Part shown: one piece after another, positions 21,862 to 39,811 of the stretch
How positions within the stretch are numbered: position 1 is the stretch's first letter
Layout of the letters: the number at the start of each line of letters is the position of its first letter
Origin: Muribaculaceae bacterium
GTDB lineage: Bacteria > Bacteroidota > Bacteroidia > Bacteroidales > Muribaculaceae
NCBI GenBank assembly: GCA_017548365.1
Contig: JAFZAC010000031.1
Coordinates: 5,248-69,247, forward strand
DNA length: 64,000 nucleotides
Direction: 5' to 3'
Notes under the pieces: model-generated
Told to the model about the DNA's origin: nothing
Database searches by the model: none
The model's input: only the letters and a program-made list of their open reading frames with translations
Made by a program: the position numbers and the translations under genes

Positions 21862-22731
21862 ATGAGCGCAAGTCAATTCGCTAAAGTAATTGCTGAGAGT
21901 TCGTCAACACACTCCGAGTGGAGTTTAATAGACGGCAACAATGTAGTGGCTCACGCCATGATTTCGGGAATCAACCCCTATTTCTTGACGCGTCGTGAGA
22001 TAAGTCATATAATCAGGCTCGAACTGCCACGCGAATTTTTCAAACGTCGCTGGGACAAGGTATTGTTCTATGGCGCAGGATGTTCAACACCCGAAAGAAA
22101 AAAGATAGTAGAACTATCGCTTGTTGCACAATTCAAGACCCCAGTAACTGTTGAGAGTGACCTTGTGGGAGCCGCTCACGGACTTCTCCAGCATGAGGCC
22201 GGCTTAGCCTGTATTCTTGGTACAGGATCCAATTCGTGCTTCTATGATGGAGAAAAAATTACCAAGAGTGTGACCGCCGGTGGTTTCATTTTGGGCGATG
22301 AGGGCAGTGGCTCATCGATGGGCCGCATCTTCCTGAGCGACGTTCTCAAGAACCTTGCTCCTCGTGAACTAATCGAGGAGTTCTATGCAGTTAACAAGAT
22401 TACAACATCGGATGTGATGGACTCGGTGTACAACAACCCACACGCCAACCACAACCTCCACAACTACTCATTCTTCCTTGCCGACCACCTCGACAACGAG
22501 TATGCCCGTGACTTGGTAACCAACGAGATTAAGCGATTCTTCGACCGCAATTTGTGTCAATATGAATACAAGGACTATCCCATCTGTTTCGTTGGCTCGA
22601 TAGCGACAAGATACAGCGAAATTCTGCTTCAGGTAGCTTACAGCTACAACATGAATGTTAAGAAAATCGTAAGCGAATCAATGCCCGGCTTGGTAGCCTA
22701 CCACTCAGTTGGGTTCAATGCCGTAAGATAA
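21862..22731 (+). CDS. BadF/BadG/BcrA/BcrD-family sugar-kinase-like protein with an atypical phosphate-1 loop
   Basis: FYGAGC, SDLVGAA, ILGTGSNS, GFILGDEGSG and FVGSIA motifs are shared with the 38969 kinase, but the N-terminal loop reads IAESSSTHSEW. Confidence 0.8.
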   Translation: MSASQFAKVIAESSSTHSEWSLIDGNNVVAHAMISGINPYFLTRREISHIIRLELPREFFKRRWDKVLFYGAGCSTPERKKIVELSLVAQFKTPVTVESDLVGAAHGLLQHEAGLACILGTGSNSCFYDGEKITKSVTAGGFILGDEGSGSSMGRIFLSDVLKNLAPRELIEEFYAVNKITTSDVMDSVYNNPHANHNLHNYSFFLADHLDNEYARDLVTNEIKRFFDRNLCQYEYKDYPICFVGSIATRYSEILLQVAYSYNMNVKKIVSESMPGLVAYHSVGFNAVR

Positions 22732-23885: not shown

Positions 23886-26800
23886 ATGGCAAAATATAAG
23901 AAAATACTAATTGTGGCATTAACACTGATGGCATTACCAGTCATTCAGTTGCGTGCCCAAGAAAGCGAAGTAACCGCGACAGCCGAGAATACCGAAATCA
24001 CCGAGAGTGCAAAGCAAGCCATCCAGCAAATCATTGCTGCAAATCTTCCCGAAAATATGGGAATTGGCACGCTCAAAGCTCGCAACATTGACATTTCGGG
24101 CGATTCAATTAAGGTTGACCTTAGTGAGAACTTTGGAGATGTCCCCTTTACTACCGAGAGTATAGACAAACTGAAAAAAGACATCAAGTCGACCTTAGGT
24201 GAGGGATATGACGACCATAAGGTTTACCTCACAATAGCGGGCAACCCCATCGAGAACTATTTTTCGGAATTCGACAACAGCTACAAGCGCAAGCACAACA
24301 GCTTTGTGAGTCCTGTCGACGAGAACCGCAATTATAAGAAAGGGTTGAGCGGAAACATAGTTGCAGTGTGGCCCAGCCATGGGTGGTATTTTGAGCCCAA
24401 GCTCAACCGCTGGGAATGGCAGCGTGCGCGCATGTTCCAGACTGTTGAGGACATGTACACCCACAGCTATATGATACCCTATATCATTCCTATGCTCGAG
24501 AATGCAGGAGCCTATGTATGGGACGCCCGTGAGCGCGACACCCACAACTTTGGTGCCGTAGTCGACAACGATGGCGGCAATGCACAGAAAGGTTACAACG
24601 AGCATAATGGCAGCAAGAAATGGAAAGACGGCGAAGGCAACGGCTTTGCCTACAAGCGCGACAACTATCGTGACTTTGAAAACCCGTTTGACGAAGGCAC
24701 CTATCGTATGATAGAAGCTGAAAAAGACAAGAAAAAAGAAGCTACAGCATCATGGGATGTAGATATGCCCGAGGCTGGCACTTATGCAATATATGTGAGC
24801 TACAAATCGCTTCCCAACAGCGCTCACGACGCCACCTATACTATCAACTCGTTGAACGGCAGCCAGCAGTTCAAGGTTGACCAGTCGATGGCAGGCGGCG
24901 TTTGGGTTTACTTGGGCTCGTTTGAGCTCGCCAAAGGCATCAACAAGAACGTAGTGACTCTTAGCAACCACAGCTCTGACAAGAAAGCAGTCATTACAGC
25001 CGACGCCATCAAAGTAGGTGGCGGAAAAGGCAACATAGTTCGCCGTGTAGCACTTCCCACACCCGAGAACAAAGCCATTGCCGAGAAAAATGACGACTTG
25101 AAATATCTGGGCAAAGAAGGTATCAACTACCAGTATGTGGGCAGCGGCGAGCACCCATGGTTCCATCTAGGTTCACGTTACTTCCTCCAGTGGTCGGGAT
25201 TCCCTCATGAGGTTTATTCTACAAGCACTGGCGTCAACGACTATGTTGACGATTACCGCAGCCGCGGCGAATGGGTGAACTATCTTGCCGGCGGCAGTGA
25301 CGTATTGCCAAACAAGCCAGGCTTGAAGGTTCCCGTCGATGTTTCGTTCTGTCTCCACACCGATGCAGGCACTACAACCAACGACGACATCATTGGCACC
25401 CTTCTCATATACTGCACCACTAAGAATGGCAAACAATTTGGAAAATATGAAAACGGCACACCACGCGAACTCTCGCGCCAGTATGCCAACATAGTCTCGA
25501 CCGAAGTTGTCAACGATATTCGTGCCAAGTATGAGCCCAAGTGGACACGTCGCGGCATGTGGGATAAGAGCTACTACGAGGCACGCGTTCCTGAAGTCCC
25601 CGCTTTACTGATGGAGCTGCTTTCTCATCAAAATTTCGCCGACATGAAATATGGTCTCGACCCAGAATTCCGCTTTGATGTTAGCCGTTCGATTTATAAA
25701 GGCATTGTAAAATTCATCGCAAAACGCGACCACCGCGAGTGCGTCATCCAACCACTCCCTGTGAATTCATTCACCATCAACAAGCTCAGCGACAACTTCT
25801 TCATGCTCAACTGGGAGCCAACCCCCGATCCATTGTGCTCAAGCGCTGTAGCAAAAAAATATGTTGTATTGGAGAAAGTGGGCGCCAACGATGGCTTCAA
25901 GGAAATTGAAATCGTAGACGATCCTCACTACTCTATTCGCATCGACGACAACGAGATACACAGCTTCAAAATCATTGCTATGAACGAGGGCGGACGCAGT
26001 TTCCCCAGCGAGGCATTGTCGATAGGCGTTGCTAAGAACAGCAAAGGAACCGTAATGGTGGTCAACGATTTTACCCGTGTGAGCGGTCCCGACTGGTTCG
26101 ACAGTGGCAAAATGGCTGGATTCTATGACGAGAAGGACCACGGCGTGCCTTACATGGAGCAAATCAACTATCTGGGTTCACAGTTTGAGTTCCGCCGTAA
26201 TCTCGAGTGGCGCGATGACGACGCTCCAGGCTTTGGAGCCAGCCGCAGCAACCACGAGACCGAGAACATTGCCGGCAACACATTCAACTACCCATCTCTT
26301 CATGGTGCAGCAATAATGAATGCTGGATACTCATTTGTATCCACAAGCGTAAAAGCACTTGAGAATGGCGATGTAGACCTCACTGGCTATTGCGCTGTTG
26401 ACATGATTATGGGCAAACAAAAAGAGACTCCCACCGGACGAGGCGCGAAACCTTCTCGTTTCAAGGCGTTGACTCCCGGCATCATGAACGCATTGACCAA
26501 TTACACCCGCTATGGCGGCAATGTGCTGATGACAGGCGCCTATGTGGCCAGCGATATCTGGGACAAAGACAAACCTGCGTCAAATGAAGTGAACTTTGCA
26601 CAAAACGTAATGGGTTATACCTGGGTAGATGGCCGAGCCACCCTCCGGGGCGAGGTCTACAGCGTTCCCAGTGCTTTGAAGCTGAGTGACGGCATGAGCA
26701 ACCTGAAATTCTATAACACATTGAACAGCGAGTTCTATGCTGTTGAGTCGCCCGACGCAATCAAAGCCAGCGACAGCCATGGTGCGACAATCCTGCGATA

Positions 26801-26951
26801 CAGCGAGAACAATATACCTGCCGGTATAGCCTCAAGCCGCAATGGCTACAAAACTGTGGTTGTTGGTTTCCCCTTCGAGACCATCAAGAACGAGAACGAG
26901 CGCAACGAATTCATGAACCGTGTGCTCAACTTCTTCTCAAACGAGCAATAA
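23886..26951 (+). CDS. Amidase_3-like protein with inserted Golvesin/xanthan-lyase-C-like module and Fn3 (usually annotated xanthan lyase/Fn3 protein)
   Basis: Signal peptide; WPSHG, VEDMY, SFCLHTDAG and LMELLSHQN amidase-type ligands; an inserted WDVDMPEAGTYAIY...VWVYLGSF...ADAIK module; Fn3 LNWEPTPD...MNEGGRS. Confidence 0.7.
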   Translation: MAKYKKILIVALTLMALPVIQLRAQESEVTATAENTEITESAKQAIQQIIAANLPENMGIGTLKARNIDISGDSIKVDLSENFGDVPFTTESIDKLKKDIKSTLGEGYDDHKVYLTIAGNPIENYFSEFDNSYKRKHNSFVSPVDENRNYKKGLSGNIVAVWPSHGWYFEPKLNRWEWQRARMFQTVEDMYTHSYMIPYIIPMLENAGAYVWDARERDTHNFGAVVDNDGGNAQKGYNEHNGSKKWKDGEGNGFAYKRDNYRDFENPFDEGTYRMIEAEKDKKKEATASWDVDMPEAGTYAIYVSYKSLPNSAHDATYTINSLNGSQQFKVDQSMAGGVWVYLGSFELAKGINKNVVTLSNHSSDKKAVITADAIKVGGGKGNIVRRVALPTPENKAIAEKNDDLKYLGKEGINYQYVGSGEHPWFHLGSRYFLQWSGFPHEVYSTSTGVNDYVDDYRSRGEWVNYLAGGSDVLPNKPGLKVPVDVSFCLHTDAGTTTNDDIIGTLLIYCTTKNGKQFGKYENGTPRELSRQYANIVSTEVVNDIRAKYEPKWTRRGMWDKSYYEARVPEVPALLMELLSHQNFADMKYGLDPEFRFDVSRSIYKGIVKFIAKRDHRECVIQPLPVNSFTINKLSDNFFMLNWEPTPDPLCSSAVAKKYVVLEKVGANDGFKEIEIVDDPHYSIRIDDNEIHSFKIIAMNEGGRSFPSEALSIGVAKNSKGTVMVVNDFTRVSGPDWFDSGKMAGFYDEKDHGVPYMEQINYLGSQFEFRRNLEWRDDDAPGFGASRSNHETENIAGNTFNYPSLHGAAIMNAGYSFVSTSVKALENGDVDLTGYCAVDMIMGKQKETPTGRGAKPSRFKALTPGIMNALTNYTRYGGNVLMTGAYVASDIWDKDKPASNEVNFAQNVMGYTWVDGRATLRGEVYSVPSALKLSDGMSNLKFYNTLNSEFYAVESPDAIKASDSHGATILRYSENNIPAGIASSRNGYKTVVVGFPFETIKNENERNEFMNRVLNFFSNEQ

Positions 26952-26998: not shown

Positions 26999-28438
26999 AT
27001 GGAATCGAAATTTCGCATACCAATTGTCATTTGCGCCCAAGCTACCATCACAAGTTGTGACGGAGACTTGCCGCTTAAAGTGCTCTTTGACGAAGTGAAC
27101 CTCATGGGCTATGACAAGCATAACTCATGGGCTCATTCCTTGAAAGTTGTTGGTAGCGAAGAATCAAACTATGCGATTTACATTTTACAGCCAACCCACA
27201 TTGAGCTTGGTCATATGGCGTTGAGGCGCATGATGAAGGTTGCTCAAGACACTGACGCTACTATGGTATATTGTGACCATTTAAATCGCATGCCCAATGG
27301 CTCGCTCGTCAAGCACCCAGTTATTGACTGCCAGGAAGGCTCACTGCGCGACGATTTCGATTTTGGTCCTGTAGTCTTAATAAACAAAAATGCTCTCAGT
27401 AAAGCCTGTGGTGAAATATATAACGATTTTGAGGAATTACAATACTCTGGATTCTATGCCGTGAGACTGGCTTTGTCTAGATACGGAAAAATTGTTCACA
27501 TTCCTGAATATCTTTACACCTGCGATGCATCTGATTCACGCAGCAGCGGTGAACGCATCTTTGACTATCAACGTGAAGAAGAGACCGACAAACAGAAGGA
27601 AATGGAAGCTGTGTGCACTTGGCACTTAACAAAAATCGGCGCATTCCTAAATCCTGGGCAGTATAAAGACGTGGACCTTACTCAGGGCGAATTCCCTGTT
27701 GAGTGTTCTGTTATCATTCCTGTTTTAAACCGCGTGAACGTTATTAGTGATGCCATCAAAAGCGTGCTAGCCCAAGAGACACCGTTCAATTTTAACCTCA
27801 TCGTCATCGACAACCACTCAACCGATGGCACCACCGAAGCCATCGACGAGTTTGCCGGCGACCCGCGCCTCATCCACATCATTCCCGAGCGTTATGACTT
27901 GGGGATAGGCGGATGCTGGAACTTGGGCATCTACGACGAGCGTTGCGGACGCTTTGTCATTGGGCTTGACAGCGACGACCTCTTTGACAGCCCTTCGGCA
28001 ATCGACACAATGGTCAAAAAATTCTATGAAGACAATGCCGCAATGGTAGTTGGCAGCTATAAGATTGTTGACCACAATCTTCAAGAGGTTCTTCCTGGTA
28101 TTATCGCACATAGAGAATGGACACTAGAAAATGGCCGCAACAACCTGCTCAGGGTTAACGGCATTGGCGGTCCCCGCGCATTTTTTACACCTATCTACCG
28201 CGAGATATGTCTGCCATGCAGCAGTTATGGCGAAGACTACGGCATGGGACTGATGATTTCACGCAACTATCGTGTGGGTCGCGTTTGGGACGTTATGACA
28301 CTAGCCCGCCGTGGTGATGACAACACCGACTCCAACCTCTCCATCGAACAAGAAAACGCAAACAACTTCTATAAAGACCGACTTCGCTCATGGGAAGTTC
28401 AGGCGCGTATTGCACTTAACAAGAATAAAATTCAATAA
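26999..28438 (+). CDS. Two-domain glycosyltransferase family 2 (paralogue 1)
   Basis: N-terminal GSLRDDFDFG domain; C-terminal SVIIPVLNR, IDNHSTDGT, LDSDD and YGEDY motifs. Confidence 0.85.
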   Translation: MESKFRIPIVICAQATITSCDGDLPLKVLFDEVNLMGYDKHNSWAHSLKVVGSEESNYAIYILQPTHIELGHMALRRMMKVAQDTDATMVYCDHLNRMPNGSLVKHPVIDCQEGSLRDDFDFGPVVLINKNALSKACGEIYNDFEELQYSGFYAVRLALSRYGKIVHIPEYLYTCDASDSRSSGERIFDYQREEETDKQKEMEAVCTWHLTKIGAFLNPGQYKDVDLTQGEFPVECSVIIPVLNRVNVISDAIKSVLAQETPFNFNLIVIDNHSTDGTTEAIDEFAGDPRLIHIIPERYDLGIGGCWNLGIYDERCGRFVIGLDSDDLFDSPSAIDTMVKKFYEDNAAMVVGSYKIVDHNLQEVLPGIIAHREWTLENGRNNLLRVNGIGGPRAFFTPIYREICLPCSSYGEDYGMGLMISRNYRVGRVWDVMTLARRGDDNTDSNLSIEQENANNFYKDRLRSWEVQARIALNKNKIQ

Positions 28439-28455
28439 ATCAAAATATTACTCAA

Positions 28456-29940
28456 ATGACAAAGATTAATTGCTTTATCCCATTTGCCAATGCCGACCAG
28501 GCACAGGCTACAGTTGATGGATTGAAGGCCAATCCATTAGTAAACAAAATCTATTTGCTTGCCAATGATGAGGCCCAGGGCACTATCGACGGCTGCGAGA
28601 TGCTCAAGGTGAATAACCTCACATCGACCGCCACTATGAAGGCTATTGCCGAGCGCAGTGACGCATGCGTGACATTACTTTACACCAAGTATGTAACACT
28701 CAAGTTCGCGCCTTATGCCATTGAGCGTTTTGTAAAAATACTTGCCGACACTCAGAGCGGTATGGTTTATGCCGACCACTACAACGTTACCGACAAGGGC
28801 GCCGACAAAGCTCCAGTAATTGATTATCAGATGGGTTCTCTGCGCGATGATTTCGACTTTGGCTCAGTGCTGGTTTACTGTGGTGAGTGCTTCAAGAAAG
28901 CCGCTGCAGCAATGAAGGCCGACTATGAATTTGCCGGTCTCTACGACCATCGCCTCAAGCTGTCGCAATTCGCGACCATCACCCATATCAATGAGTTCCT
29001 TTATAGCGACGTAGAGCTTGACACTCGCAAGAGCGGCGAGAAGATTTTTGACTATGTTGATCCTCGCAACCGTGGTCGCCAAATTGAGATGGAGGCTGCC
29101 TGCACCGAGCATCTGAAGGAGATTGGCGGTTATTTGGCACCCACCAAGGTGGTTGACGGCAAAGAAGTACCAAACTTCAAGCACATTGAATTTGATCACG
29201 ACAAGTTTGAGGTTGAGGCAACAGTAATGATACCCGTGCGCAACCGCATCCGCACCATCCGCGACGCCATCAACAGCGTTCTTAATCAGAAGACCAATTT
29301 CAAGTTCAATCTCATGGTAGTTGACAACTTCTCGACCGACGGCACTCGCGAGGCCATCGCCGAATATGACGACCCACGCCTCATCCACATCATTGCCGAC
29401 TTCTACGACATGGGAATTGGCGGTTACTGGAATCTTGCCGCCCATCATGAGAAGGCTGGTAAGTTTGTAGTTCAGCTTGATAGCGACGATATGTACAAAG
29501 ACGAGAACACTTTGCAGACCATGGTTAACGCCTTCTACGAGCAAAACGTGGCAATGGTTGTCGGCACCTATCTGATGACCGACATCAACTGCAACCCCAT
29601 TCCTCCAGGCGTGATTGACCACAAAGAATGGACTCCAGAGAATGGCCGCAACAATGCTCTCCGCATCAACGGTCTTGGCGCTCCCCGCGCATTCTACACT
29701 CCCGTGCTTCGTGAGGTCATGCTACCCAACACCAGCTATGGTGAGGACTACGCACTTGGTCTGAACATTTCACGCACTTACCAGATAGGCCGCGTTTACG
29801 AGCCTGTTTATATGTGCCGTCGCTGGGACGACAACAGCGATGCCAACGTGGATGTTGTTAAGATGAACAATAACAACCTCTACAAAGACCGCATGCGCAC
29901 TTGGGAGCTTATGGCTCGCATCGCGCTTAACAAAAAATAA
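28456..29940 (+). CDS. Two-domain glycosyltransferase family 2 (paralogue 2)
   Basis: Same architecture: GSLRDDFDFG, VMIPVRNR, VDNFSTDGT, LDSDD and YGEDY. Confidence 0.88.
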   Translation: MTKINCFIPFANADQAQATVDGLKANPLVNKIYLLANDEAQGTIDGCEMLKVNNLTSTATMKAIAERSDACVTLLYTKYVTLKFAPYAIERFVKILADTQSGMVYADHYNVTDKGADKAPVIDYQMGSLRDDFDFGSVLVYCGECFKKAAAAMKADYEFAGLYDHRLKLSQFATITHINEFLYSDVELDTRKSGEKIFDYVDPRNRGRQIEMEAACTEHLKEIGGYLAPTKVVDGKEVPNFKHIEFDHDKFEVEATVMIPVRNRIRTIRDAINSVLNQKTNFKFNLMVVDNFSTDGTREAIAEYDDPRLIHIIADFYDMGIGGYWNLAAHHEKAGKFVVQLDSDDMYKDENTLQTMVNAFYEQNVAMVVGTYLMTDINCNPIPPGVIDHKEWTPENGRNNALRINGLGAPRAFYTPVLREVMLPNTSYGEDYALGLNISRTYQIGRVYEPVYMCRRWDDNSDANVDVVKMNNNNLYKDRMRTWELMARIALNKK

Positions 29941-29957
29941 AGAAACTTTCTTAATTC

Positions 29958-30938
29958 ATGAGCCGCCGTTACAACGAAGAAATAACCCAGTTGTGGGCAA
30001 GACAACACGCTGAGTGGGACACCGTAAGAAAGAATTACGGCAACCTCTATAATGCACTCACTCGCACCATAAAGGTGGGTGTAAATACGTTCGTTTTGCA
30101 ATACAACCCCGAGCGTTTACGTTCTTCGGCAGCAAACATTGACGCAAAAGCAATAAGTGAACGTCCCTGCTTCTTGTGTAACGAGAACCAGCCACCAGAG
30201 CAAGAAACTGTGATGTGGGAAGATAAATATAAGATACAGGTTAACCCCTACCCCATCTTCAAGCGCCACCTCACCATCTCGGCCGTAGAGCACACTCCTC
30301 AGTTAATCTCAGGCCGCTTTGGCGACATGATGCGTCTTGCTCGAGACCTAAAAGACTATGTGGTGTTTTACAATGGTCCTCATAGTGGAGCTTCGGCTCC
30401 CGACCACATGCACTTCCAGGCGGGGTTACGTGACGAGCTGCCCATATGCAGTGAACTACCTTGGCTAACGATGAGAGTAATCAACAGCGGCGCATGTTTT
30501 TTGAGCTACAATATCAGCTCGCTACGACCAGTGTTCTACATTGACACCTCCAGCTTAGAGGATGGCGAGAAATACTTATGTGAGCTGCTCAATTTCTTGC
30601 CACAGAAAGAAGGGCATGACGAACCAATGGTCAACATCTTGTGCTGGTATGATTACAACTCATGGAAGATAGCATTGTTTCCACGCAGCAAGCACCGTCC
30701 ATCGTGCTATGGCACCAATGATGACCAATTTATCATTAGCCCTGCATCGGTCGATTTGGGCGGCTTGATAGCCGTGGCTCGTGAAGAAGACTTTTATAGA
30801 CTTACCTTCCCTGATGTGACATCCATCTTATCAGATGTGTGTCTAAATGAAATTGAAGTAGCAAAAATTGCTGACAACTTAACCAACTATTACACTTTAA
30901 TAAAACTTACAAACTATGGCACAAGTTCCCCAAGTTAG
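29958..30938 (+). CDS. DUF4922 family, HIT/GalT-like HxHxQ nucleotidyltransferase/phosphorylase
   Basis: QYNPER, RPCFLC, NPYPI, HLTI, GASAPDHMHFQAG and HRPSCY motifs. Confidence 0.75.
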   Translation: MSRRYNEEITQLWARQHAEWDTVRKNYGNLYNALTRTIKVGVNTFVLQYNPERLRSSAANIDAKAISERPCFLCNENQPPEQETVMWEDKYKIQVNPYPIFKRHLTISAVEHTPQLISGRFGDMMRLARDLKDYVVFYNGPHSGASAPDHMHFQAGLRDELPICSELPWLTMRVINSGACFLSYNISSLRPVFYIDTSSLEDGEKYLCELLNFLPQKEGHDEPMVNILCWYDYNSWKIALFPRSKHRPSCYGTNDDQFIISPASVDLGGLIAVAREEDFYRLTFPDVTSILSDVCLNEIEVAKIADNLTNYYTLIKLTNYGTSSPS

Positions 30939-32241
30939 AGTGGGCATAATGTCCGAACCTATAGTTGAGTTTGAATTCAACGGCGACTATCGTGTAGACG
31001 GCGAGAAAGTGACCGGCAACCACTTGGCGCGCTGCGTCGATGGCATGGTAGAGTGGAATGGCAAGAAATATCACGACATTCTCTTTGAGCCCATCAATGT
31101 CGACACCGACTCGTTCACTCTTGAGAATGTGACGATTGGCGTGAGCTTTCATTGGAAGCGTAAGGAAAATCAGACCTTCCGTGGAGCTCTGCATCTCATA
31201 GTTGAGAACGACAGCATTACCACAATCAACATCCTTTCAGTTGAGGAATATCTGTTGAGTGTGATTTCGAGCGAAATGAGTGCTAATGCCTCACTTGAAC
31301 TGCTCAAAGCTCATGCAGTGATTTCACGTAGCTGGCTTTTAGCTCAAATCAAGAAAGATAATGTTGACGCAACATCCGATCCTGGATTGCATCAGGAATT
31401 TGAAGCAAGCAGCGAGACCGAAGAAATAAAATGGTGGGACCGCGATGACCATGTGAACTTTGACGTATGCGCCGACGATCACTGTCAGCGCTACCAAGGC
31501 ATCACACGTGCCTCGACCGAGGCTGTGCGACAAGCCATCGAAGCCACATGGGGACAAGTGTTGATGTATGGCGGTGAGCTTTGCGACGCACGCTTCTCAA
31601 AGTCATGCGGCGGTGTTTATGAGCAGTTTGAGAACTGCTGGCAAGATGACCCACACCCCTATCTGGTGGCACGTCGCGACGATGATGACGAGATGAATTT
31701 CCCCGACCTCACTCGCGAAGACAATGCCGCCGACTGGATTCTTTCATCACCTCACGCTCATTGCAACACCACCGACAAGGGAATCCTGTCACAGGTACTC
31801 AATGATTATGACCAGGAGACCACCGATTTCTACCGTTGGCGAGTGGAATACACGCAAGAAGAGCTCAGCCGCATCATCAAGGAGCGCACTGGCGACGACT
31901 ATGGCCACATCATCGACCTCGAGCCTGTGGCACGAGGCACCAGCGGACGACTTTACAAGCTGCGAATCGTGGGCGAGAAGATGACCAAGACTATTGGCAA
32001 GGAGCTTACCATTCGCTATGCACTGTCTCCTTCGTGCCTCTACAGCTCGGCTTTCATTGTTGAGAAAATCAATGAGAACAACGCGCAATATCCCGAGAAA
32101 TTTGTGCTTCGTGGTGCTGGATGGGGACATGGTGTTGGTCTTTGCCAGATAGGTGCCGCAGTGATGGGCGCCAAGGGCTACGACTACAACCAAATCCTGC
32201 TCCACTACTTCATCGACGCACAAATCGAGACAATATATTAA
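30916..32241 (+). CDS. SpoIID/LytB domain peptidoglycan lytic enzyme
   Basis: EEYLLSVISSEM, LKAHAVISRS, CADDHCQRYQG and GWGHGVGLCQIGA motifs. Confidence 0.9.
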   Translation: MAQVPQVRVGIMSEPIVEFEFNGDYRVDGEKVTGNHLARCVDGMVEWNGKKYHDILFEPINVDTDSFTLENVTIGVSFHWKRKENQTFRGALHLIVENDSITTINILSVEEYLLSVISSEMSANASLELLKAHAVISRSWLLAQIKKDNVDATSDPGLHQEFEASSETEEIKWWDRDDHVNFDVCADDHCQRYQGITRASTEAVRQAIEATWGQVLMYGGELCDARFSKSCGGVYEQFENCWQDDPHPYLVARRDDDDEMNFPDLTREDNAADWILSSPHAHCNTTDKGILSQVLNDYDQETTDFYRWRVEYTQEELSRIIKERTGDDYGHIIDLEPVARGTSGRLYKLRIVGEKMTKTIGKELTIRYALSPSCLYSSAFIVEKINENNAQYPEKFVLRGAGWGHGVGLCQIGAAVMGAKGYDYNQILLHYFIDAQIETIY

Positions 32242-32270: not shown

Positions 32271-33599
32271 ATGAATGCATTAACAAAATTCAAACAGTCA
32301 CCCTGGGCATGGATACCAACTCTTTATTTTATTGAGGGCATACCTTATTTCCTTGTTAATGAGATATCAGTAATCTTATTCAAGAAAATGGGTGTTCCCA
32401 ATGGCCAAATGGCACTCTTCACGAGTCTTATATATCTCCCTTGGGTAATCAAACCCTTGTGGAGTCCGTTTGTCGACATCATCAAGAAGAAACGCTGGTG
32501 GATTGTAATGATGCAGATGCTCATGGCAACAACCTTAATCCTGCTCACCGTCACCATGCCATCGCCTGGAGAAGAGATGATAAAAGCGGGCACTACGCCA
32601 ATGAGCATGTTTACCGTTACTCTTATCTTTTTCATCATCACAGCATTTGCCTCGTCAACACACGATATAGCTGCCGACGGTTTCTACATGCTGGCACTGA
32701 CACAGAAAAACCAGTCAGCTTTTGTAGGAGTTCGTTCCACGTTCTACCGACTTGCCAATATTTTTGGAAATGGCGTGCTGGTGTGGATTGCCGGATATCT
32801 TGAGACCAAGACTTCAATTCCCGCAGGATGGAAAATCACAATGGGAATAGCTTCGGCCATCATGTGCTTATTCTACATTTACCACCTATTCTTCATTCCT
32901 CGCCCCGACAGTGACCGTTCCTCACTTGAAGGATCTTTAAAAAACAACAGTTCACAAGTGATGAAAGAGTTTGGACGTACTATTGTGACCTATTTCAAGA
33001 AACCCGGTGTGTGGATTGCTATCATCTTCATGCTGCTTTATCGCTTGCCCGAGGCCTTCCTGCTCAAGATGTGTAAGCCTTTCATGCTCGACCCAATAGA
33101 CAAGGGTGGTCTATCGATGACAACACAAGACGTGGGTCAAGCTTACGGCATCATTGGTGTGGCTGCCCTTTTAGCTGGTGGTATTCTTGGCGGAATATTC
33201 TCATCAAAAGTTGGTCTAAAGAAAGCCATTTGGCTAATGGCCGGTTGCATGACACTGCCTTGCCTAACCTTTGTATATCTCTCAATGGCTCAGCCCACAA
33301 ACTACTTCATCATCTGCACCTGCATCGTGATTGAGCAGTTTGGTTATGGCTTTGGATTCACAGCCTATATGCTCTACATGATGTTCTTCTCGGAAGGCGA
33401 GTTCAAGACCTCACACTATGCCCTGTGTACGGCATTCATGTCGCTGAGTATGATGATTCCAGGCATGTTTGCTGGCTACATACAGGAGTCTATAGGCTAC
33501 TCGGCATTCTTCTGGATGGCATTTGCTTGCAGTATAGCAACAATTGCTGTAACCTTCCTTGCCGACCGCAAAATTGATCCAGAATACGGACTCAAATAA
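32271..33599 (+). CDS. ampG: AmpG-like MFS muropeptide permease
   Basis: LPWVIKPLWSPFVD, ASSTHDIAADGFY and HYALCTAF motifs; 12-TM pattern; cluster context. Confidence 0.82.
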   Translation: MNALTKFKQSPWAWIPTLYFIEGIPYFLVNEISVILFKKMGVPNGQMALFTSLIYLPWVIKPLWSPFVDIIKKKRWWIVMMQMLMATTLILLTVTMPSPGEEMIKAGTTPMSMFTVTLIFFIITAFASSTHDIAADGFYMLALTQKNQSAFVGVRSTFYRLANIFGNGVLVWIAGYLETKTSIPAGWKITMGIASAIMCLFYIYHLFFIPRPDSDRSSLEGSLKNNSSQVMKEFGRTIVTYFKKPGVWIAIIFMLLYRLPEAFLLKMCKPFMLDPIDKGGLSMTTQDVGQAYGIIGVAALLAGGILGGIFSSKVGLKKAIWLMAGCMTLPCLTFVYLSMAQPTNYFIICTCIVIEQFGYGFGFTAYMLYMMFFSEGEFKTSHYALCTAFMSLSMMIPGMFAGYIQESIGYSAFFWMAFACSIATIAVTFLADRKIDPEYGLK

Positions 33600-33623: not shown

Positions 33624-34877
33624 ATGAAACGTCACATATTATTCATAACTTTAGCTATAGTGGCAATGGCAGCAAGTGCTGCTGTAAAACCAGGTATTGA
33701 GGTGCTGCGCGATAGAGGTTTTAAGGAACTACAAGGCAAGCGCGTGGGATTGGTGACAAACCCCAGTGGCATTGACAACAACCTCAAGTCAACAGTCGAC
33801 ATCCTCAACGAAGCACCTGGCGTGAAACTGGTAGCACTTTTCGGTCCTGAGCATGGAGTACGCGGCAATGCCCACGCAGGCGACAAAGTAGCCGACGATG
33901 TCGACCCTGCAACTGGCGTCAAGATGTATTCCCTATATGGCAAGACCCACGAGCCTACAACCGAAATGCTGAAGGACATTGATATTCTCATCTACGACAT
34001 CCAGGACATTGGCTGCCGCAGTTACACGTTCTATGCCACCATGGGAGTGTGCATGCAGGCCTGTGCCAAGCACAATAAAGAATTTATGGTCCTTGACCGC
34101 CCCAACCCCCTTGGAGGCAACAAGGTAGAAGGCAACCTTGTGGAAGAAGGCTATTTCTCGTTTGTGAGCAAGTATGCCATTCCTTACCTCTATGGTCTCA
34201 CTCCTGGCGAATTGGCGCAATATCTCAACGAAGAAGGCATCATTGGCAAGGAGTCAAAAACCGGCAAAAAGTGCAAGCTGACTGTCATCCCCATGGAAGG
34301 CTGGACTCGCGACATGAAGTTCCGCGACACCGGTATGCCCTGGGTACTCCCTTCTCCTCAGATTCCTGCTCCCGAGAACGCATTCTTCTATCCCGTGAGC
34401 GGCATCCTTGGCGAGTTGTATATCTTCAACACCGGCATTGGCTACACTTTGCCATTTGAATGTTTTGCCGCCTCTTGGATTGATGCTGAAGAGCTTGCAA
34501 AGAACATGAACGCACTGAATCTGCCAGGAATGCACTTCCGTCCCATCAACTACAAACCATTCTTTGCATTAAGCGTGGCAGTCGACAAGACATTGCAAGA
34601 GGTGCATGGTGTTCAGATTTATATCACCGACTTTGACAAGGCAAATCTTGTGCTCACTCAGTTCTACTTCCTTCAAGTGATTCACGAGATGTATCCCAAG
34701 AAGCAACTCTTTGAGCAGAATCCACAGCGCTATGCGATGTTTGACAAGGTGTGCGGCACAAAGGAAATTCGCGAGCGCTTCTGCAAACGCTATAAAGTAG
34801 AAGACATTATCGACTACTTCAATAAAGACACCGAAGCTTTTAAAGCAAAATCAAGCAAATATTACCTCTATGAGTAA
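33624..34877 (+). CDS. namZ: Exo-beta-N-acetylmuramidase NamZ (DUF1343)
   Basis: Signal peptide; VGLVTNPSG, LFGPEHG, YDIQDIGCRSYT, LDRPNP and PSPQIP motifs. Confidence 0.9.
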   Translation: MKRHILFITLAIVAMAASAAVKPGIEVLRDRGFKELQGKRVGLVTNPSGIDNNLKSTVDILNEAPGVKLVALFGPEHGVRGNAHAGDKVADDVDPATGVKMYSLYGKTHEPTTEMLKDIDILIYDIQDIGCRSYTFYATMGVCMQACAKHNKEFMVLDRPNPLGGNKVEGNLVEEGYFSFVSKYAIPYLYGLTPGELAQYLNEEGIIGKESKTGKKCKLTVIPMEGWTRDMKFRDTGMPWVLPSPQIPAPENAFFYPVSGILGELYIFNTGIGYTLPFECFAASWIDAEELAKNMNALNLPGMHFRPINYKPFFALSVAVDKTLQEVHGVQIYITDFDKANLVLTQFYFLQVIHEMYPKKQLFEQNPQRYAMFDKVCGTKEIRERFCKRYKVEDIIDYFNKDTEAFKAKSSKYYLYE

Positions 34878-34937: not shown

Positions 34938-37727
34938 TTGGACGAGAAACATAAAAAATATCTCAAGCGCATTAGGGAGTTCATCCCTAAAGACCGCATC
35001 TATACCGACGACTTGCACTGCCTGGCGTGGGGCACTGATGCTGGCTTCTACCGCAACATTCCGCAAGTGGTGGTGCGCTCCAGCAACGAGCAGGAAGTAT
35101 CGAAACTGCTAAGCATTGCCAATGAGATGCAGCTTCCAGTAACATTCCGCGCTGCCGGCACAAGTTTGAGCGGACAGACCAACACCGACTCCATCCTCAT
35201 TGTGGCAGGCAAGAACTGGGAAAACTATGAGGTTGCTCCCGACGCCAGCTACATCAAGCTTCAGCCTGGAATTGTAGGCAGTGAAGTCGACAAGATTCTC
35301 GCCCGTCACAACCGCGCATTCACCCCCGACCCTGCCAGCAAGAACTCATCGATGGTGGGTGGCATCGTCATCAACAATGCCAGCGGCATGAGCTGTGGCA
35401 CACATGCCAACAGCGACCGTATGATGCTCTCTATGCGCATCGTCATGGCCGACGGCACCGTTCTCGACACTGGCGACAAGCGCAGTCGCGACAATTTCAG
35501 TTTATCTCATCCACAATTCATCAAGCGCATTGAAGAGATTCGCGACCGAGTAATGGCCGACGAGGAGCTTGTGGCACGCATTCGTCGCAAGTATTCCATC
35601 AAGAACGTAACAGGTCTCAATATTTCGCCGTTTGTACTCTACAACGACCCATTCGACATCATCACACATTTGATGGTTGGCAGTGAGGGAACTCTAGCAT
35701 TTGGCAGCGAGTTCACTATGAAGACTGGACATCTCTACCCCTGCCGCGCCAGCGCCATGCTATATTTCCAAGACATGCGTGAGTCGTGCGAAGCAGTGGT
35801 AGCTATGAAGAAAGGCCCTGTGCACTGCGCCGAGATTCTTGACAAAAAATCACTTGCAAGTGTGGATGACAATACTGGTGAAAATCTCACAGCAGTACTC
35901 ATTCAGACCTTTGCCGACAGTCAAGAAGAGCTGCAGAGCAATATCGACCAAATCATGTCGATTCTCGAGCCTTTCCACCTCTTTGTGCCAGCCAACTTTA
36001 CCGATGATCCAAAAGTATATGGCAAGTACTGGGCTATACGCTCAGGAATCTTCCCCAGTGTGGGCGGCACTCGTCCCCTTGGCACCACAGTACTTATCGA
36101 GGATGTGGCATTCCACATTGAGGATCTTCCCGAGGCCACTGTTGATTTGGCGCAGATGCTGATCGACTATGGTTATGACGACAGTTGCATCTACGGCCAC
36201 GCACTTGAGGGCAATTACCACTTCATAATTTCGCAGTCGTTTGACACAGATGAAGAAGTAAAGCGCTATGAAAACCTGATGCGCGCTGTAGTGAAGTTGG
36301 TTATCGACAAATATGACGGTTCGCTAAAGGCCGAGCATGGCACTGGCCGCAATATGGCTCCATTTGTCAAGAAAGAATGGGGCGAGAAGGCCTATCAAGT
36401 GATGCTTGACGTTAAGCAACTTTTCGATCCGAAAGGCATCCTCAACCCTGGTGTCATCTTCAACGACGACCCTGAATGCTTTATCAAGAACCTCAAGCCC
36501 ATGCCCTTAACCAATGACAACGTTAACAAATGCATTGAGTGCGGATTCTGTGAGGTGAACTGCGTGAGCAGCGGATTGACACTTTCATCACGCCAGCGCA
36601 TCATTGTTCAACGCGAGATATCTCGACTAAAAGCGACAGGCGAAGACCCTGAGCGATTGAAACGGCTTGAGAAGCAATATCAATACTACGGCGAGGCCAC
36701 TTGCGCCGCCGACGGACTATGCTCTACTTCTTGCCCAATGGGAATCAATGTGGGAGAGCTCACTCACGACCTGCGAGCTGAACAGCACGGCAAGGGCACT
36801 ATGGCACACAGTTTTGGAGATAGTGTAGCCCGCCATTTCGCCATAACCAAAGGGGCACTCAAGTCGCTGCTCTATGTTGCTGGAGCAGCTCACACCGTGC
36901 TTGGCGACAGTGGAGTGATTGCCTTGGGCAAAGCTCTGCACTCCATAGGAGCTCCATTATGGACTCCCTCCACACCTAATCCTCACAAGATGAAATCGCT
37001 TAACCAGCAAGAGAGCGACAAGAAGGTTGTGTACTTCCCCAGCTGCCTAAACCAGTCGCTGGGACGCGACAAGCATGGCGCAGAAGTCGACCTCGTCGAC
37101 AAGGTGGTATCCTTCCTCAACAAGGCTGGATGGCAAGTCATCTATCCCGAGAACATGAATAACTTGTGCTGCGGCATGATTTGGAACAGCAAGGGTATGC
37201 CCGACATAGCTCAGCAAAAGACTGATGAGCTCGAACAGGCACTGCTCAAAGCCAGCGATGACGGCAAACTGCCAGTGGTGTGCGACCAAAGTCCATGTCT
37301 GCATCATATGCGAAAGCACATGAAGCAAGTGAAACCGCTGGAACTCATGGAATTTATCCACGACCTTGTAGCTCAAGATTTGGATTTCACTCCGACCGAC
37401 GAACCCATTGCTCTGCATCTTACCTGCTCCACAAGGCTGATGAAAATTGACGACAAAATACTCGATCTTGCCAAGCGATGCTCCACCAACGTGCTGATTC
37501 CCGAAGGTGTGGGATGCTGTGGCTTTGCCGGTAACAAAGGATTCACCCATCCCGAGCTCAACGCCTATGCCTTGCGCAAACTGCGTCCTCAAATCGAGGC
37601 AGCAGGCATACATCGTGGTTTCAGCAATAGCCGCACTTGCGAGATAGGCCTCACCACCCACAGTGGTGTACCCTACCAATCTTTAATTTACCTTATCGAT
37701 GAAGTGACAACAAAAAAAGACAAATAA
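34938..37727 (+). CDS. FAD-binding, Fe-S-containing D-lactate dehydrogenase-like oxidoreductase (Dld-II type)
   Basis: TTG start; FAD-PCMH (FRAAGTSLSGQ, PDPAS), KAEHGTG, ferredoxin motifs CIECGFC and CAADGLCSTSCP, two CCG domains. Confidence 0.82.
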   Translation: MDEKHKKYLKRIREFIPKDRIYTDDLHCLAWGTDAGFYRNIPQVVVRSSNEQEVSKLLSIANEMQLPVTFRAAGTSLSGQTNTDSILIVAGKNWENYEVAPDASYIKLQPGIVGSEVDKILARHNRAFTPDPASKNSSMVGGIVINNASGMSCGTHANSDRMMLSMRIVMADGTVLDTGDKRSRDNFSLSHPQFIKRIEEIRDRVMADEELVARIRRKYSIKNVTGLNISPFVLYNDPFDIITHLMVGSEGTLAFGSEFTMKTGHLYPCRASAMLYFQDMRESCEAVVAMKKGPVHCAEILDKKSLASVDDNTGENLTAVLIQTFADSQEELQSNIDQIMSILEPFHLFVPANFTDDPKVYGKYWAIRSGIFPSVGGTRPLGTTVLIEDVAFHIEDLPEATVDLAQMLIDYGYDDSCIYGHALEGNYHFIISQSFDTDEEVKRYENLMRAVVKLVIDKYDGSLKAEHGTGRNMAPFVKKEWGEKAYQVMLDVKQLFDPKGILNPGVIFNDDPECFIKNLKPMPLTNDNVNKCIECGFCEVNCVSSGLTLSSRQRIIVQREISRLKATGEDPERLKRLEKQYQYYGEATCAADGLCSTSCPMGINVGELTHDLRAEQHGKGTMAHSFGDSVARHFAITKGALKSLLYVAGAAHTVLGDSGVIALGKALHSIGAPLWTPSTPNPHKMKSLNQQESDKKVVYFPSCLNQSLGRDKHGAEVDLVDKVVSFLNKAGWQVIYPENMNNLCCGMIWNSKGMPDIAQQKTDELEQALLKASDDGKLPVVCDQSPCLHHMRKHMKQVKPLELMEFIHDLVAQDLDFTPTDEPIALHLTCSTRLMKIDDKILDLAKRCSTNVLIPEGVGCCGFAGNKGFTHPELNAYALRKLRPQIEAAGIHRGFSNSRTCEIGLTTHSGVPYQSLIYLIDEVTTKKDK

Positions 37728-37729
37728 AT

Positions 37730-38887
37730 ATGGCAAATAACAACAAACGACTCCTCTCGCTCGACATACTGCGAGGAATAACGATAGCTGGCATGTTGCT
37801 AGTGAACAACCCTGGCACATGGAGCCACATCTATGCCCCGCTCGAGCATGCCGAGTGGATTGGACTGACACCCACCGATCTGGTGTTCCCGTTCTTCATG
37901 TTTGTGATGGGCGTGTCGATGTTCTTCTCGTTGCGAAAGTTTAACTTCAAGCTCAGCGGAAGCTTGATGCTCAAGATATGCCGTCGCACTATTATCCTAT
38001 TCCTTATTGGATGGGTTGTACAGTGGTTTGGAATGTGGTTGAGAGGACTTTACAATCCCGAATCACAGTTCTTTGCCGACATGTTTGGCAAGTTGCGCAT
38101 CCTGGGCGTGTTCCAACGCTTGGCACTTGTCTATTTCTTCGGCTCAATGATTGCCGTGCTGTTCAAGAGCAAGTTCATTCCATGGATAATAGGACTTATT
38201 CTCATTGTATATGCCTTCATCTTGGGATTTGGCAATGGCTATGAGTTCTCGCTCGACAATATTCTCTCGCGCATCGACTGTGCCGTGCTCGGTGAAAATC
38301 ACATGTATCACGAAGAGGCTTTTGGTCTGAAACTCGCTCTCGACCCCGAGGGAATACTCAGCACACTGCCTTGTATTGCCCATGTGCTCATAGGCTTCAT
38401 GGTGGGCAAATGCATTAACACTGTACACAACAACCGCGACCGCATAGTTGAGATTGCAGTGTGGGGAGCACTCATGCTGCTTGTGGGATGGCTGCTGCAA
38501 TACGGAATTCCATGCAGCAAGAAAGCTTGGACATCTAGTTATGTTCTTATCACTTGCGGTATGGCATCATGTATTCTTGCGATGCTCATATATGCTATCG
38601 ACATCAAGGGTCACAACCGCTGGTGCCGCTTCTTCCAGGCATTTGGAATCAACCCGCTTTTCTGCTATTTAGTGGGCACCATTTTTGCCATAGTGTTTGG
38701 CACACTTCGCTTCGGCACCAATGCCGAAGGCGACCCAATTACTATAAAATCACTCATTTTCGACGGCTGGAGTGCCGTCACCACTACCCCCGAGGCAGCA
38801 TCTTGCCTCTATGCCATCACCTTCGTGCTCATCACCTGGTGCTTTGGATATTTCCTATACAAGAAAAAAATATATATAAAGATATAG
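37730..38887 (+). CDS. HGSNAT/DUF5009-like polytopic membrane protein (position of murT in murT-murK-murQ operons)
   Basis: RLLSLDILRG, MLLVN, DLVFPFF, GVFQRLA, DPEGILS and KKAWTSSY motifs; ~11 TM helices. Confidence 0.75.
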   Translation: MANNNKRLLSLDILRGITIAGMLLVNNPGTWSHIYAPLEHAEWIGLTPTDLVFPFFMFVMGVSMFFSLRKFNFKLSGSLMLKICRRTIILFLIGWVVQWFGMWLRGLYNPESQFFADMFGKLRILGVFQRLALVYFFGSMIAVLFKSKFIPWIIGLILIVYAFILGFGNGYEFSLDNILSRIDCAVLGENHMYHEEAFGLKLALDPEGILSTLPCIAHVLIGFMVGKCINTVHNNRDRIVEIAVWGALMLLVGWLLQYGIPCSKKAWTSSYVLITCGMASCILAMLIYAIDIKGHNRWCRFFQAFGINPLFCYLVGTIFAIVFGTLRFGTNAEGDPITIKSLIFDGWSAVTTTPEAASCLYAITFVLITWCFGYFLYKKKIYIKI

Positions 38888-38968: not shown

Positions 38969-39811
38969 ATGATTTTAATTGCTGACTGCGGCTCCACCAA
39001 GATTGACTGGTGTCTGCTTAACGGAAAAAAGAAAGTAGCGCAAATCTTCACTACCGGCATGAACGCTCTGCTCATGACCGAAGAGGAGATGGCCGAGTGC
39101 ATCATGACCGAACTCATGCCCAGCCTTCAAGGCTATGAGGTAACCGAGATTTTCTACTATGGTGCAGGAATCATTAATGATGAGATTAAAAATCAGGTAA
39201 TTAATGCGCTCAAGCGCAATATGCCAAACGTGACCAAAGTTGAGGTCGATAGCGACCTCCTGGCTGCTGCCAGAGCATTGTGCCAGTACGAGCCTGGAAT
39301 CGCATGCATTCTGGGCACCGGCAGCAACAGCTGCTATTACGACGGCGAAAAAGTCGTTGACAATGTTTCACCACTGGGCTATATTTTAGGTGATGAAGGT
39401 AGTGGTGCCGTTCTTGGCAAACTTCTTGTGGGCGATGTTCTCAAGAAGCAACTGCCAGAACATCTGTGCGAGAAGTTTCTCAAGGAGTACAACCTCGACC
39501 GCAACACCATTATCGACCGAGTGTATCGCAAACCAGCCGCCAACCGCTTCCTGGCGCAATTTGCTCCATTCCTGGAGCGCAATATCAATGAGCCTTCAAT
39601 ACGTGCCCTCGTTCTGCGTTCATTCACCGACTTCTTTGTTCGCAACGTGGCAAACTATCCTAAATACAAGGAACTTCCTTGCAATTTCGTAGGTTCAATC
39701 GCATTACTCCAGAAGGATGTACTTACCGAGGCTGCCAGCAAACTTGGCATCACAATTGGCAACATCATCCAAGCCCCAATGGAAGGACTTATAAAATATC
39801 ACTCTAAATAA
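38969..39811 (+). CDS. murK: N-acetylmuramic acid/N-acetylglucosamine kinase (BadF family)
   Basis: IADCGSTKIDW, FYYGAG, ILGTGSNS and LGDEGSG motifs; directly upstream of murQ. Confidence 0.75.
   Translation: MILIADCGSTKIDWCLLNGKKKVAQIFTTGMNALLMTEEEMAECIMTELMPSLQGYEVTEIFYYGAGIINDEIKNQVINALKRNMPNVTKVEVDSDLLAAARALCQYEPGIACILGTGSNSCYYDGEKVVDNVSPLGYILGDEGSGAVLGKLLVGDVLKKQLPEHLCEKFLKEYNLDRNTIIDRVYRKPAANRFLAQFAPFLERNINEPSIRALVLRSFTDFFVRNVANYPKYKELPCNFVGSIALLQKDVLTEAASKLGITIGNIIQAPMEGLIKYHSK

Follow-up and report, generated by a model that had tools for sequence, protein, structure and literature searches.

Tannerella forsythia, a known auxotroph for N-acetylmuramic acid (MurNAc), provides the closest described counterpart of the locus considered here. 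Its operon Tanf_08345-08385 is co-transcribed and encodes, in this order, a 'xanthan lyase', Gtf, Gtf, LytB, AmpG, NamZ1, MurT, MurK and MurQ (PMC5388701). NamZ1 releases N-acetylglucosaminyl-MurNAc (GlcNAc-MurNAc), the Gtf genes are called 'function unknown', and LytB is listed as a putative (periplasmic) lytic transglycosylase (bioRxiv 10.1101/2021.12.02.470905). AmpG of T. forsythia imports GlcNAc-MurNAc and the 1,6-anhydro form GlcNAc-anhMurNAc (bioRxiv 10.1101/2021.12.02.470905 citing Mayer 2020; PMC7670621), and the latter suffices as sole MurNAc source even though the bacterium is without AnmK, the later route being described as unknown (PMC7670621; bioRxiv 10.1101/2021.12.02.470905). 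The present analysis concerns a 64,000-nucleotide stretch of DNA from a Muribaculaceae bacterium (contig JAFZAC010000031.1 of assembly GCA_017548365.1), hereafter the window, which corresponds to C28:5248-69247 of genome G000 in our numbering; the completeness of this genome is 97.4%. The subject is a group of neighbouring genes in the window that encode a glycosyltransferase of family GT2 (GT2B), a DUF4922 protein and a SpoIID/LytB-like protein, and that are referred to below as the cassette.

The gene order and content of the T. forsythia operon match those of the window's locus, and a gene for K1058 lies upstream in both. In terms of the published gene list, the two 'Gtf' genes correspond either to GT2A and GT2B of the window, GT2A being a second GT2 gene directly 5' of the first, or to GT2B and DUF4922. 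As shown in Table 1, the locus contains exported amidases, AmpG, NamZ, a D-lactate-dehydrogenase-like FAD/Fe-S protein, a MurT-like permease, MurK, MurQ and a GDSL esterase in addition to the cassette, and all its genes are co-directional with intergenic gaps of 2-81 nt. An earlier reading made from the sequence alone had described a GT2-GT2-DUF4922 trio within a catabolic cell-wall locus, with DUF4922 overlapping lytB by 23 nt. The three open reading frames (ORFs) were found intact exactly where it had placed them, as two tandem GT2 genes and a DUF4922 gene, the overlap was recovered (the SpoIID/LytB ORF begins at 30916), and the surroundings are indeed genes of peptidoglycan scavenging. The locus is thus regarded as a new member of the published operon type, and the cassette inside it is without a characterised counterpart.

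The composition of the functional unit was examined in 80 related loci taken as the best matches from species-level genomes and 20 loci from other classes of the phylum, together with six further loci chosen for long open frames; counts out of 78 refer to those loci that include their upstream side. In Bacteroidales the order amidase-like protein, GT2B, DUF4922, SpoIID, AmpG, NamZ, (D-lactate dehydrogenase), MurT, MurK, MurQ is near-universal, as is the adjacency of AmpG in the approximately 80 best-matching loci, and the Golvesin_C/Amidase_3 gene stands directly upstream of the GT2 gene in most of the related loci. A single GT2 gene lies directly 5' of DUF4922 in 77 of the 78 loci, and among 29 short loci drawn from the whole phylum, 23 have GT2B next to DUF4922. 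The same partners also occur as fused proteins. In 6 of 100 loci a single ORF encodes both DUF4922 and SpoIID, single ORFs of GT2-DUF4922 have 781, 843 and 652 aa, and single ORFs of GT2-DUF4922-SpoIID (L139, L140 and L143) have 1080, 1077 and 912 aa, respectively. With GT2 and DUF4922 adjacent to this extent and fused in six loci, the link through a shared nucleoside diphosphate (NDP)-sugar that had been proposed for the pair is the natural reading.

The trio itself had to be redrawn. GT2A is present in only 9 of the 78 loci and in 3 of 35 genera, and the third partner is instead a SpoIID-like protein without a signal peptide. The lack of the signal, the synteny and the fusions together indicate that the actual trio consists of GT2B, DUF4922 and a SpoIID located in the cytoplasm, with AmpG as the next gene, and the functional unit is best explained as a cytoplasmic three-enzyme cassette that is co-transcribed with the AmpG permease. 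One of the related loci, L025 (CAVKDU010000005.1), is titled Wujia chipingensis (Lachnospiraceae, Bacillota) and carries a Muribaculaceae-type locus nearly identical to L021; this contig is probably mislabelled or mis-binned.

In the SpoIID-like protein, VEEYLLSVISSEM aligns with the catalytic EM motif of SpoIID, and the GHGVG motif is kept. The protein matches the SpoIID domain, and the extracytoplasmic location that characterises SpoIID/LytB transglycosylases is not indicated for it: the ORF has no hydrophobic N-terminus and leaves no space for a longer N-terminal extension. A hydrophobic N-terminus is likewise absent from the SpoIID-like protein in 84 of 85 loci, while the NamZ proteins taken as controls have one in 73 of 76. 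In the window, GT2A, GT2B, DUF4922 and the SpoIID-like protein all show neither a signal peptide nor a transmembrane segment, and NamZ, the amidases and the GDSL esterase bear signals. The SpoIID-like protein is therefore predicted to be cytoplasmic.

The DUF4922 protein carries CFLC at residues 71-74, which is the same tetrapeptide as C52FLC55 of Escherichia coli GalT, and GASAPDHMHFQ at residues 144-154, in which HMHFQ (150-154) aligns with H164PHGQ168 of GalT. Both CFLC and HxHxQ are kept in 100 of 100 DUF4922 homologues; in GalT, the CFLC residues bind zinc. The profile-profile alignment with E. coli GalT by hhalign covered the HxHxQ region only and stopped short of CFLC. The AlphaFold model (pLDDT 92) gave the yeast diadenosine tetraphosphate (Ap4A) phosphorylase Apa2 as its top Foldseek match, with an E-value of 6e-11 and a TM-score of 0.54-0.61, followed by the GalT-like protein At5g18200 (1.7e-4) and by human and E. 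coli GalT (2e-3 to 1e-2). The sequence identity to the solved HIT relatives is 10-19%, and a phmmer search reaches Apa2 with an E-value of 0.03. The plant GDP-L-galactose phosphorylase (VTC2) and the animal GDPGP1 are also classed in DUF4922 by Pfam. With the nucleophile motif, the CxxC motif and, in the model, the duplicated HIT half-barrel fold, the DUF4922 protein is a predicted member of branch III of the HIT superfamily, and the assignment to a GalT-type HIT enzyme made from the sequence alone is borne out by the CFLC and GxSxP-HxHxQ motifs common with E. coli GalT and by Apa2 as the top fold match. Such a protein is predicted to transfer a nucleoside monophosphate, with a sugar-1-phosphate as one partner and phosphate or a second sugar-1-phosphate as the other; the sequence cannot separate a phosphorylase from a transferase.

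The rate of evolution distinguishes DUF4922 from its neighbours. Within the window's clade (the window, L002, L003 and L004), DUF4922 and GT2A evolve 5-10 times faster than GT2B, SpoIID, NamZ, MurK and MurQ, with non-synonymous divergence (dN) of 0.28-0.36 for DUF4922 against 0.02-0.06 for those neighbours. Between the window and L004 the identity is 95% for GT2B, 91% for SpoIID and 93% for NamZ, compared with 59% for DUF4922; between L002 and L004 it is 97% for GT2B and 94% for SpoIID, compared with 53% for DUF4922. The fast-evolving DUF4922 of this clade keeps every catalytic motif. The divergence may reflect a loosened constraint, a changed specificity or the replacement of alleles.

For the GT2 proteins, PF00535 matches only the C-terminal half of GT2A and of GT2B (79.1 and 73.5 bits, respectively, against a gathering cut-off of 23.3). 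The AlphaFold model of GT2B (pLDDT 86) holds two GT-A-like domains, as the earlier designation 'two-domain' had anticipated. In the C-terminal domain, DSDD (342-345) and YGEDY (428-432) are invariant among 27 sequences, and in Foldseek this domain aligns structurally with SpsA, TarS, TarP and a Leptospira GT2, the highest TMt being 0.86. Across both domains, the AF2 model matches K4CP, PmHS2 and LH3. Among the best 120 database matches, GT2B homologues share 80-96% identity. The domain score, the DxD motif and the acidic region place GT2B, as a prediction from sequence and model, in the inverting GT2/GT-A family.

The N-terminal domain of GT2B differs in that YADHY stands where a DxD motif is expected, the first strand-helix is poorly conserved and the nucleotide-binding strand is variable. 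This domain is shortened in GT2A and absent from the 912-aa fusion L143. The C-terminal domain alone is always kept, and the N-terminal domain is regarded as accessory. In the fusions of GT2 with DUF4922 (and SpoIID) L143 (G637:C64:3176-5911), L144 and L139, the N-terminal GT-A-like domain is shortened or missing, the match beginning at residue 103, 121 or 195. These natural fusions suggest that the N-terminal domain is dispensable for the core reaction.

GT2A shares 49% identity with GT2B over 434 residues and is missing the first beta-alpha-beta unit of the N-terminal domain. In the tree, all upstream copies form one clade on long branches with a support of 100/100, while GT2B and the single-copy GT2 proteins of Muribaculaceae form a tight, slowly evolving clade. 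The dN values in the window's clade are 0.15-0.24 for GT2A and 0.03-0.04 for GT2B. Because the upstream copies form one clade on long branches and show high dN, GT2A is taken to be a fast-evolving duplicate of single origin, which stands outside the core of the cassette.

The gene content of the window's genome defines the task that such a cassette could perform. This genome has no AnmK gene, and each of its two GH3 (NagZ-type) proteins has a signal peptide. Without AnmK and with signal-bearing GH3 proteins only, two steps are missing for an imported disaccharide, namely the removal of the beta-linked GlcNAc and the opening of the anhydro ring. The cassette would supply this missing intracellular leg of peptidoglycan-disaccharide salvage. 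In the first step, the SpoIID-like enzyme would open the 1,6-anhydro ring of imported GlcNAc-anhMurNAc; it would thereby reverse the latter half of the lytic transglycosylase reaction and use water as its acceptor. In the second, GT2B would run in reverse and transfer the beta-linked GlcNAc of GlcNAc-MurNAc to an NDP, yielding NDP-alpha-GlcNAc and free MurNAc. In the third, DUF4922 would phosphorolyse the NDP-GlcNAc to GlcNAc-1-phosphate and return the NDP. The net reaction would be a disaccharide phosphorolysis that needs no ATP, and MurNAc would pass on either to an AmgK-like/NTP-transferase pair for wall synthesis or to MurK and MurQ for catabolism.

An inverting GT-A enzyme reversed on a beta-glycoside gives an alpha-NDP-sugar, from which a HIT phosphorylase then yields an alpha-sugar-1-phosphate, and the stereochemistry of the relay from GT2B to DUF4922 fits this. 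Anaerobes have other sugar phosphorylases with an ATP-saving net reaction of this kind, and the sum of the steps is similar to that of ordinary disaccharide phosphorylases. The kinetics of VTC2 and GDPGP1, taken with rough free energies, imply that a dedicated phosphorylase of high affinity could hold the intermediate low and let the reverse transfer run. A variant in which all three enzymes work backwards, from anhMurNAc and phosphate to MurNAc-1-phosphate through MurNAc-GlcNAc and NDP-MurNAc, was rejected, as textbook free energies imply nanomolar intermediates. The analysis shows how the locus is built, its fusions and synteny, the predicted residence of the enzymes in the cytoplasm, and the lack of murA, murB, glmS, glmU and AnmK. 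The chemistry of each step, which nucleotide takes part and which way the flux runs are inferred. That the cassette handles imported GlcNAc-(anh)MurNAc via NDP-GlcNAc, by reverse glycosyl transfer and phosphorolysis with SpoIID opening the anhydro ring, is given a probability of roughly 0.35. More broadly, it is considered likely that fragments imported by AmpG are processed by the cassette through some nucleotide-sugar intermediate.

The distribution of the genes was determined in 401 genomes sampled evenly from the phylum. DUF4922 was found in 74 of the 401: in 5 of 9 Bacteroidales (counting the window's genome), in no genome from another order of Bacteroidia and in many members of other classes; the family also matches the control genome of B. 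thetaiotaomicron. AnmK was found in 270 of the 401, including approximately 90 from the remaining orders of Bacteroidia, all of them without DUF4922, and was absent from all 9 sampled Bacteroidales. Within the class Bacteroidia, AnmK and DUF4922 are thus complementary between orders. Over the phylum, AnmK occurs in 30 of 67 DUF4922-positive genomes versus 240 of 334 DUF4922-negative genomes (Fisher p = 3e-5, uncorrected for phylogeny). In another family, four loci have NamZ and AmpG beside the GT2-DUF4922 pair, and three of them also have SpoIID.

Several points weigh against the phosphorolytic scheme. Thirty genomes, all outside Bacteroidia, carry AnmK and DUF4922 together, which rules out the cassette as a strict replacement of AnmK, and SpoIID adjacency follows AnmK absence only as a trend (4/6 versus 5/14, p = 0.34). 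The association of the pair with peptidoglycan salvage, on which the sequence-only reading had leaned, holds in Bacteroidales, where the genes were never found away from salvage genes, and gives way in another class, where 10 of 20 loci have the GT2-DUF4922 pair without AmpG, NamZ, SpoIID or MurQ within 10 kb; the neighbours of these isolated pairs are a convergent set of regulators. The link is therefore tight in Bacteroidales and not universal. With respect to the chemistry, we know of no GT2 enzyme that runs physiologically in reverse, and if the carrier were UDP, the normal pool of UDP-GlcNAc would oppose the reverse transfer, such that an unusual nucleotide or tight channelling must be assumed. 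The invariant residues in the N-terminal domain of GT2B have no role in the scheme. DUF4922 evolves 8-10 times faster than its neighbours in the window's clade, which is odd for a housekeeping step. Finally, a conventional hydrolase could remove the GlcNAc: the check for hexosaminidases covered GH3, and GH20 and GH84 were not searched for.

The routes to the wall sugars bear on the alternative closest to the sequence-only reading, in which the cassette is a Leloir-like anabolic branch. Here an anomeric kinase would make GlcNAc-1-phosphate or MurNAc-1-phosphate, DUF4922 would turn it into UDP-GlcNAc or UDP-MurNAc, either as a uridylyl transferase of GalT type or as a phosphorylase working in reverse, and the GT2 proteins would use the product for a forward transfer to an acceptor that stems from imported fragments. 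The exact GalT motifs CFLC and HxHxQ of DUF4922 agree with this. The gene content also agrees with it, as murA and murB are absent from the window's genome (genome search) and from all seven genomes of its genus, and glmS and glmU were not found by tblastn with E. coli proteins, by which nagA and nagB were found; a non-canonical route to UDP-GlcNAc is needed. T. forsythia lacks murA, murB, glmS and glmU in the same pattern (PMC5790795). An AmgK-like kinase that could supply the sugar-1-phosphates is encoded at C11:257303-258775, elsewhere in the window's genome. However, an NTP_transferase gene (PF00483, E-value 2.5e-24; C11:258775-259497) starts at its stop codon, and from these two sequences the known AmgK/MurU route to UDP-MurNAc appears to be complete. 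As the pair is present, DUF4922 is not needed as a MurU substitute; this role was rejected, and the earlier suggestion of DUF4922 as an alternative to AmgK/MurU is weakened accordingly. Moreover, the cassette is present in most murA-positive Bacteroidales and DUF4922 in B. thetaiotaomicron, no acceptor or product is apparent for a forward transferase, the locus has no flippase or exporter, and the fused cytoplasmic SpoIID domain would be left without a role. The anabolic branch is considered rather unlikely.

The tail of the AmgK-like phosphotransferase resembles the C-terminal half of RapZ (NF003828, 2.4e-31), which is an unusual combination for the AmgK/MurU bypass. Another MurU candidate, a 232-aa nucleotidyltransferase on C23, was set aside, its context being inositol-phosphate/lipid.

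The loss of MurNAc synthesis was followed through an even sample of 151 Muribaculaceae genomes from 35 genera. While murA is present in 194 of 201 Bacteroidales genomes, it was found in 89 of the 151 Muribaculaceae and murB in 87, leaving 62 without murA and 64 without murB, and the two losses coincide in the same 12-14 of the 35 genera. Judged from gene content, MurNAc auxotrophy may be common in Muribaculaceae; the literature searched contained no paper linking this family to murA loss or MurNAc auxotrophy. Profiling against murA and murB, as had been proposed from the sequence, thus gave a genome and a genus without both genes, and the GT2 gene is kept in 61 of the 62 murA-less members of the family. 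It is also kept in 77 of the 89 murA-positive members, and with the cassette present in most murA-positive Bacteroidales, the view of it as specific to auxotrophs does not hold. Because the window's bacterium cannot make MurNAc, it probably depends on the cassette.

These losses raise the possibility of a direct harvest, in which GT2B, and GT2A with another specificity, would use UDP to split disaccharides into UDP-GlcNAc and/or UDP-MurNAc for the wall, with DUF4922 merely buffering UDP-HexNAc against HexNAc-1-phosphate. The evidence that favours the phosphorolytic scheme favours this one equally, and both the window's genome and T. forsythia are without the usual routes to UDP-GlcNAc and UDP-MurNAc. 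Two GT2 copies are found in 10 of the 151 family genomes, of which 9 are murA-less (p = 0.0015, uncorrected). In a first test, all 10 genomes taken as having two GT2 genes were without murA (including that of L003, with its upstream side cut off and its GT2 count uncertain), compared with 5 of 11 single-GT2 genomes. The duplication is, however, confined to 3 genera in the even family sample, one of them murA-positive, and ten other murA-less genera carry a single GT2; as a marker of MurNAc auxotrophy it was rejected as mostly an effect of one clade. The thermodynamics are unfavourable against a normal UDP-GlcNAc pool, and the cassette is common in murA-bearing bacteria. As a general explanation of the cassette, direct harvest is accordingly held to be improbable. 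In its narrower form, in which reverse GT2 enzymes of bacteria without glmS, glmU, murA and murB would harvest UDP-GlcNAc and/or UDP-MurNAc from foreign walls without ATP while DUF4922 buffers and SpoIID opens anhydro-MurNAc, it is slightly less so, and still doubtful. If this is true, a GT2 reaction would for the first time be seen to run physiologically in reverse, and cell-wall salvage would have a new logic.

That GT2 and DUF4922 serve an unrelated glycan or small-molecule pathway, the co-location with peptidoglycan genes in Bacteroidales being incidental and SpoIID being exported non-classically, is very improbable: the pairs away from peptidoglycan genes in the other class and the resemblance of the GT2B fold to capsule polymerases point that way, but the fusions tie GT2, DUF4922 and SpoIID together, AmpG adjacency is near-universal in the best-matching loci, the counterparts are co-transcribed with ampG in T. 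forsythia (PMC5388701), and the locus has no export genes.

The coordinates of the genes are collected in Table 1.

Table 1. Genes of the peptidoglycan-salvage locus, with positions in the window and the matches on which the assignments are based.
Feature	Position	Strand	Basis
K1058-type ASKHA sugar kinase, MurK paralogue	21862..22731	+	best PDB sequence matches T. forsythia K1058 (8OW7/8OQK), E 4.9e-99
Exported Golvesin_C + Amidase_3 protein, counterpart of T. forsythia 'xanthan lyase' Tanf_08345	23886..26951	+	Pfam; signal-like hydrophobic N-terminus
GT2A	26999..28438	+	479 aa; PF00535 4.9e-22; duplicate of GT2B
GT2B	28456..29940	+	494 aa; PF00535 2.6e-20, residues 256-386; soluble, two GT-A domains
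DUF4922, GalT/Ap4A-phosphorylase-type HIT enzyme	29958..30938	+	326 aa; PF16269 1.4e-60
SpoIID/LytB-like predicted lytic transglycosylase, signal-less	30916..32241	+	TIGR02669 1.8e-50; PF08486 also matched
AmpG-family muropeptide/disaccharide permease	32271..33599	+	TIGR00901 4e-54; several hydrophobic transmembrane-like segments
NamZ (GH171) exo-beta-N-acetylmuramidase, exported	33624..34877	+	PF07075 9.9e-86, PF20732 1.4e-36; signal-like N-terminus
FAD-linked oxidase + Fe-S + CCG protein, D-lactate-dehydrogenase-like	34938..37727	+	Pfam
MurT-like inner-membrane protein (NagX/DUF5009 type)	37730..38887	+	NF046061 6e-37; nine hydrophobic segments
MurK MurNAc 6-kinase	38969..39811	+	PDB sequence matches T. 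forsythia MurK (8OQW/8OW9), E 2e-87
MurQ MurNAc-6-phosphate etherase	39875..40696	+	SIS/GKRP Pfam; 75-98% identity across related loci
Exported GDSL esterase, last gene of the cluster	40723..41394	+	PF13472 1.3e-20; signal-like N-terminus

Among the neighbouring genes, the D-lactate-dehydrogenase-like protein probably clears the D-lactate set free by MurQ, and the MurT-like gene has the same position as MurT of T. forsythia. The K1058 orthologue is kept upstream of the cassette in many loci and could share its pathway; for K1058 of T. forsythia, MurNAc is probably not the natural substrate (PMC10465942). At 18979-21585, the window encodes an exported Amidase_3 protein with Ig-like domains, a dockerin type I domain and a C-terminal sorting domain of the type IX secretion system. 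Just 3' of the operon, at 42896-44476 and adjoining a flavodiiron-like gene, lies a gene for a 526-aa AAA_21 + DUF4435 protein with an OLD/abortive-infection-like ATPase-nuclease architecture, which by its domains may be a defence gene.

The significance of the cassette follows from the bacteria in which it occurs and from the gap it could fill. Bacteroidales are dominant bacteria of the gut and rumen, and T. forsythia is a periodontal pathogen. How disaccharides are used without AnmK or a cytoplasmic NagZ is a question stated in the literature, and the cassette is the obvious candidate. The loss of murA and murB in about one third of the sampled Muribaculaceae genera means that dependence on scavenged wall sugars may be common, which is relevant to media for cultivation and to cross-feeding in the gut. 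Should the chemistry proposed here hold, the cassette would represent a novel type of glycoside phosphorylase, made up of two enzymes and mediated by a nucleotide. For the study of the cassette, the naturally fused proteins are ready-made constructs.

In the literature searched, no paper assigns a function to the cassette genes, and the only papers to mention DUF4922 deal with the GDP-hexose phosphorylases of plants and animals. With GalT, Apa2, VTC2 and GDPGP1, the DUF4922 protein has its motifs, fold and Pfam family in common, and the steady pairing with GT2 is peculiar to the DUF4922 of the present loci. GT2B shares the tandem GT-A architecture of K4CP from E. coli K4 and PmHS2 from Pasteurella over approximately 550 aligned columns, and the A2 domain of K4CP is matched by the sequence profile at 3.6e-16; the overall TM-score of K4CP and PmHS2 against GT2B is only 0.3-0.4. 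In these polymerases both GT-A domains are competent and bear DxD, whereas the N-terminal domain of GT2B has YADHY. The window's locus further differs from theirs in the lack of capsule export machinery and in its catabolic, salvage context.

The route through NagZ and AnmK (with MupP, AmgK and MurU) of E. coli and Pseudomonas deals with the same AmpG-delivered substrates, and the AmgK-like/NTP-transferase pair is present here as well. In contrast to that route, the window's genome is without AnmK and its GH3 proteins are signal-bearing; the cassette would use unrelated families and, as proposed, no ATP. With SpoIID of Bacillus and Clostridioides, a sporulation transglycosylase, the SpoIID-like protein shares the domain and motifs, whereas it has no signal or anchor, occurs fused to cytoplasmic enzymes and belongs to a non-sporulating organism. 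Compared with the published T. forsythia operon, finally, the window has a D-lactate-dehydrogenase-like gene and a GDSL esterase in addition, and its SpoIID protein is without a signal and is fused to its cassette partners in relatives.

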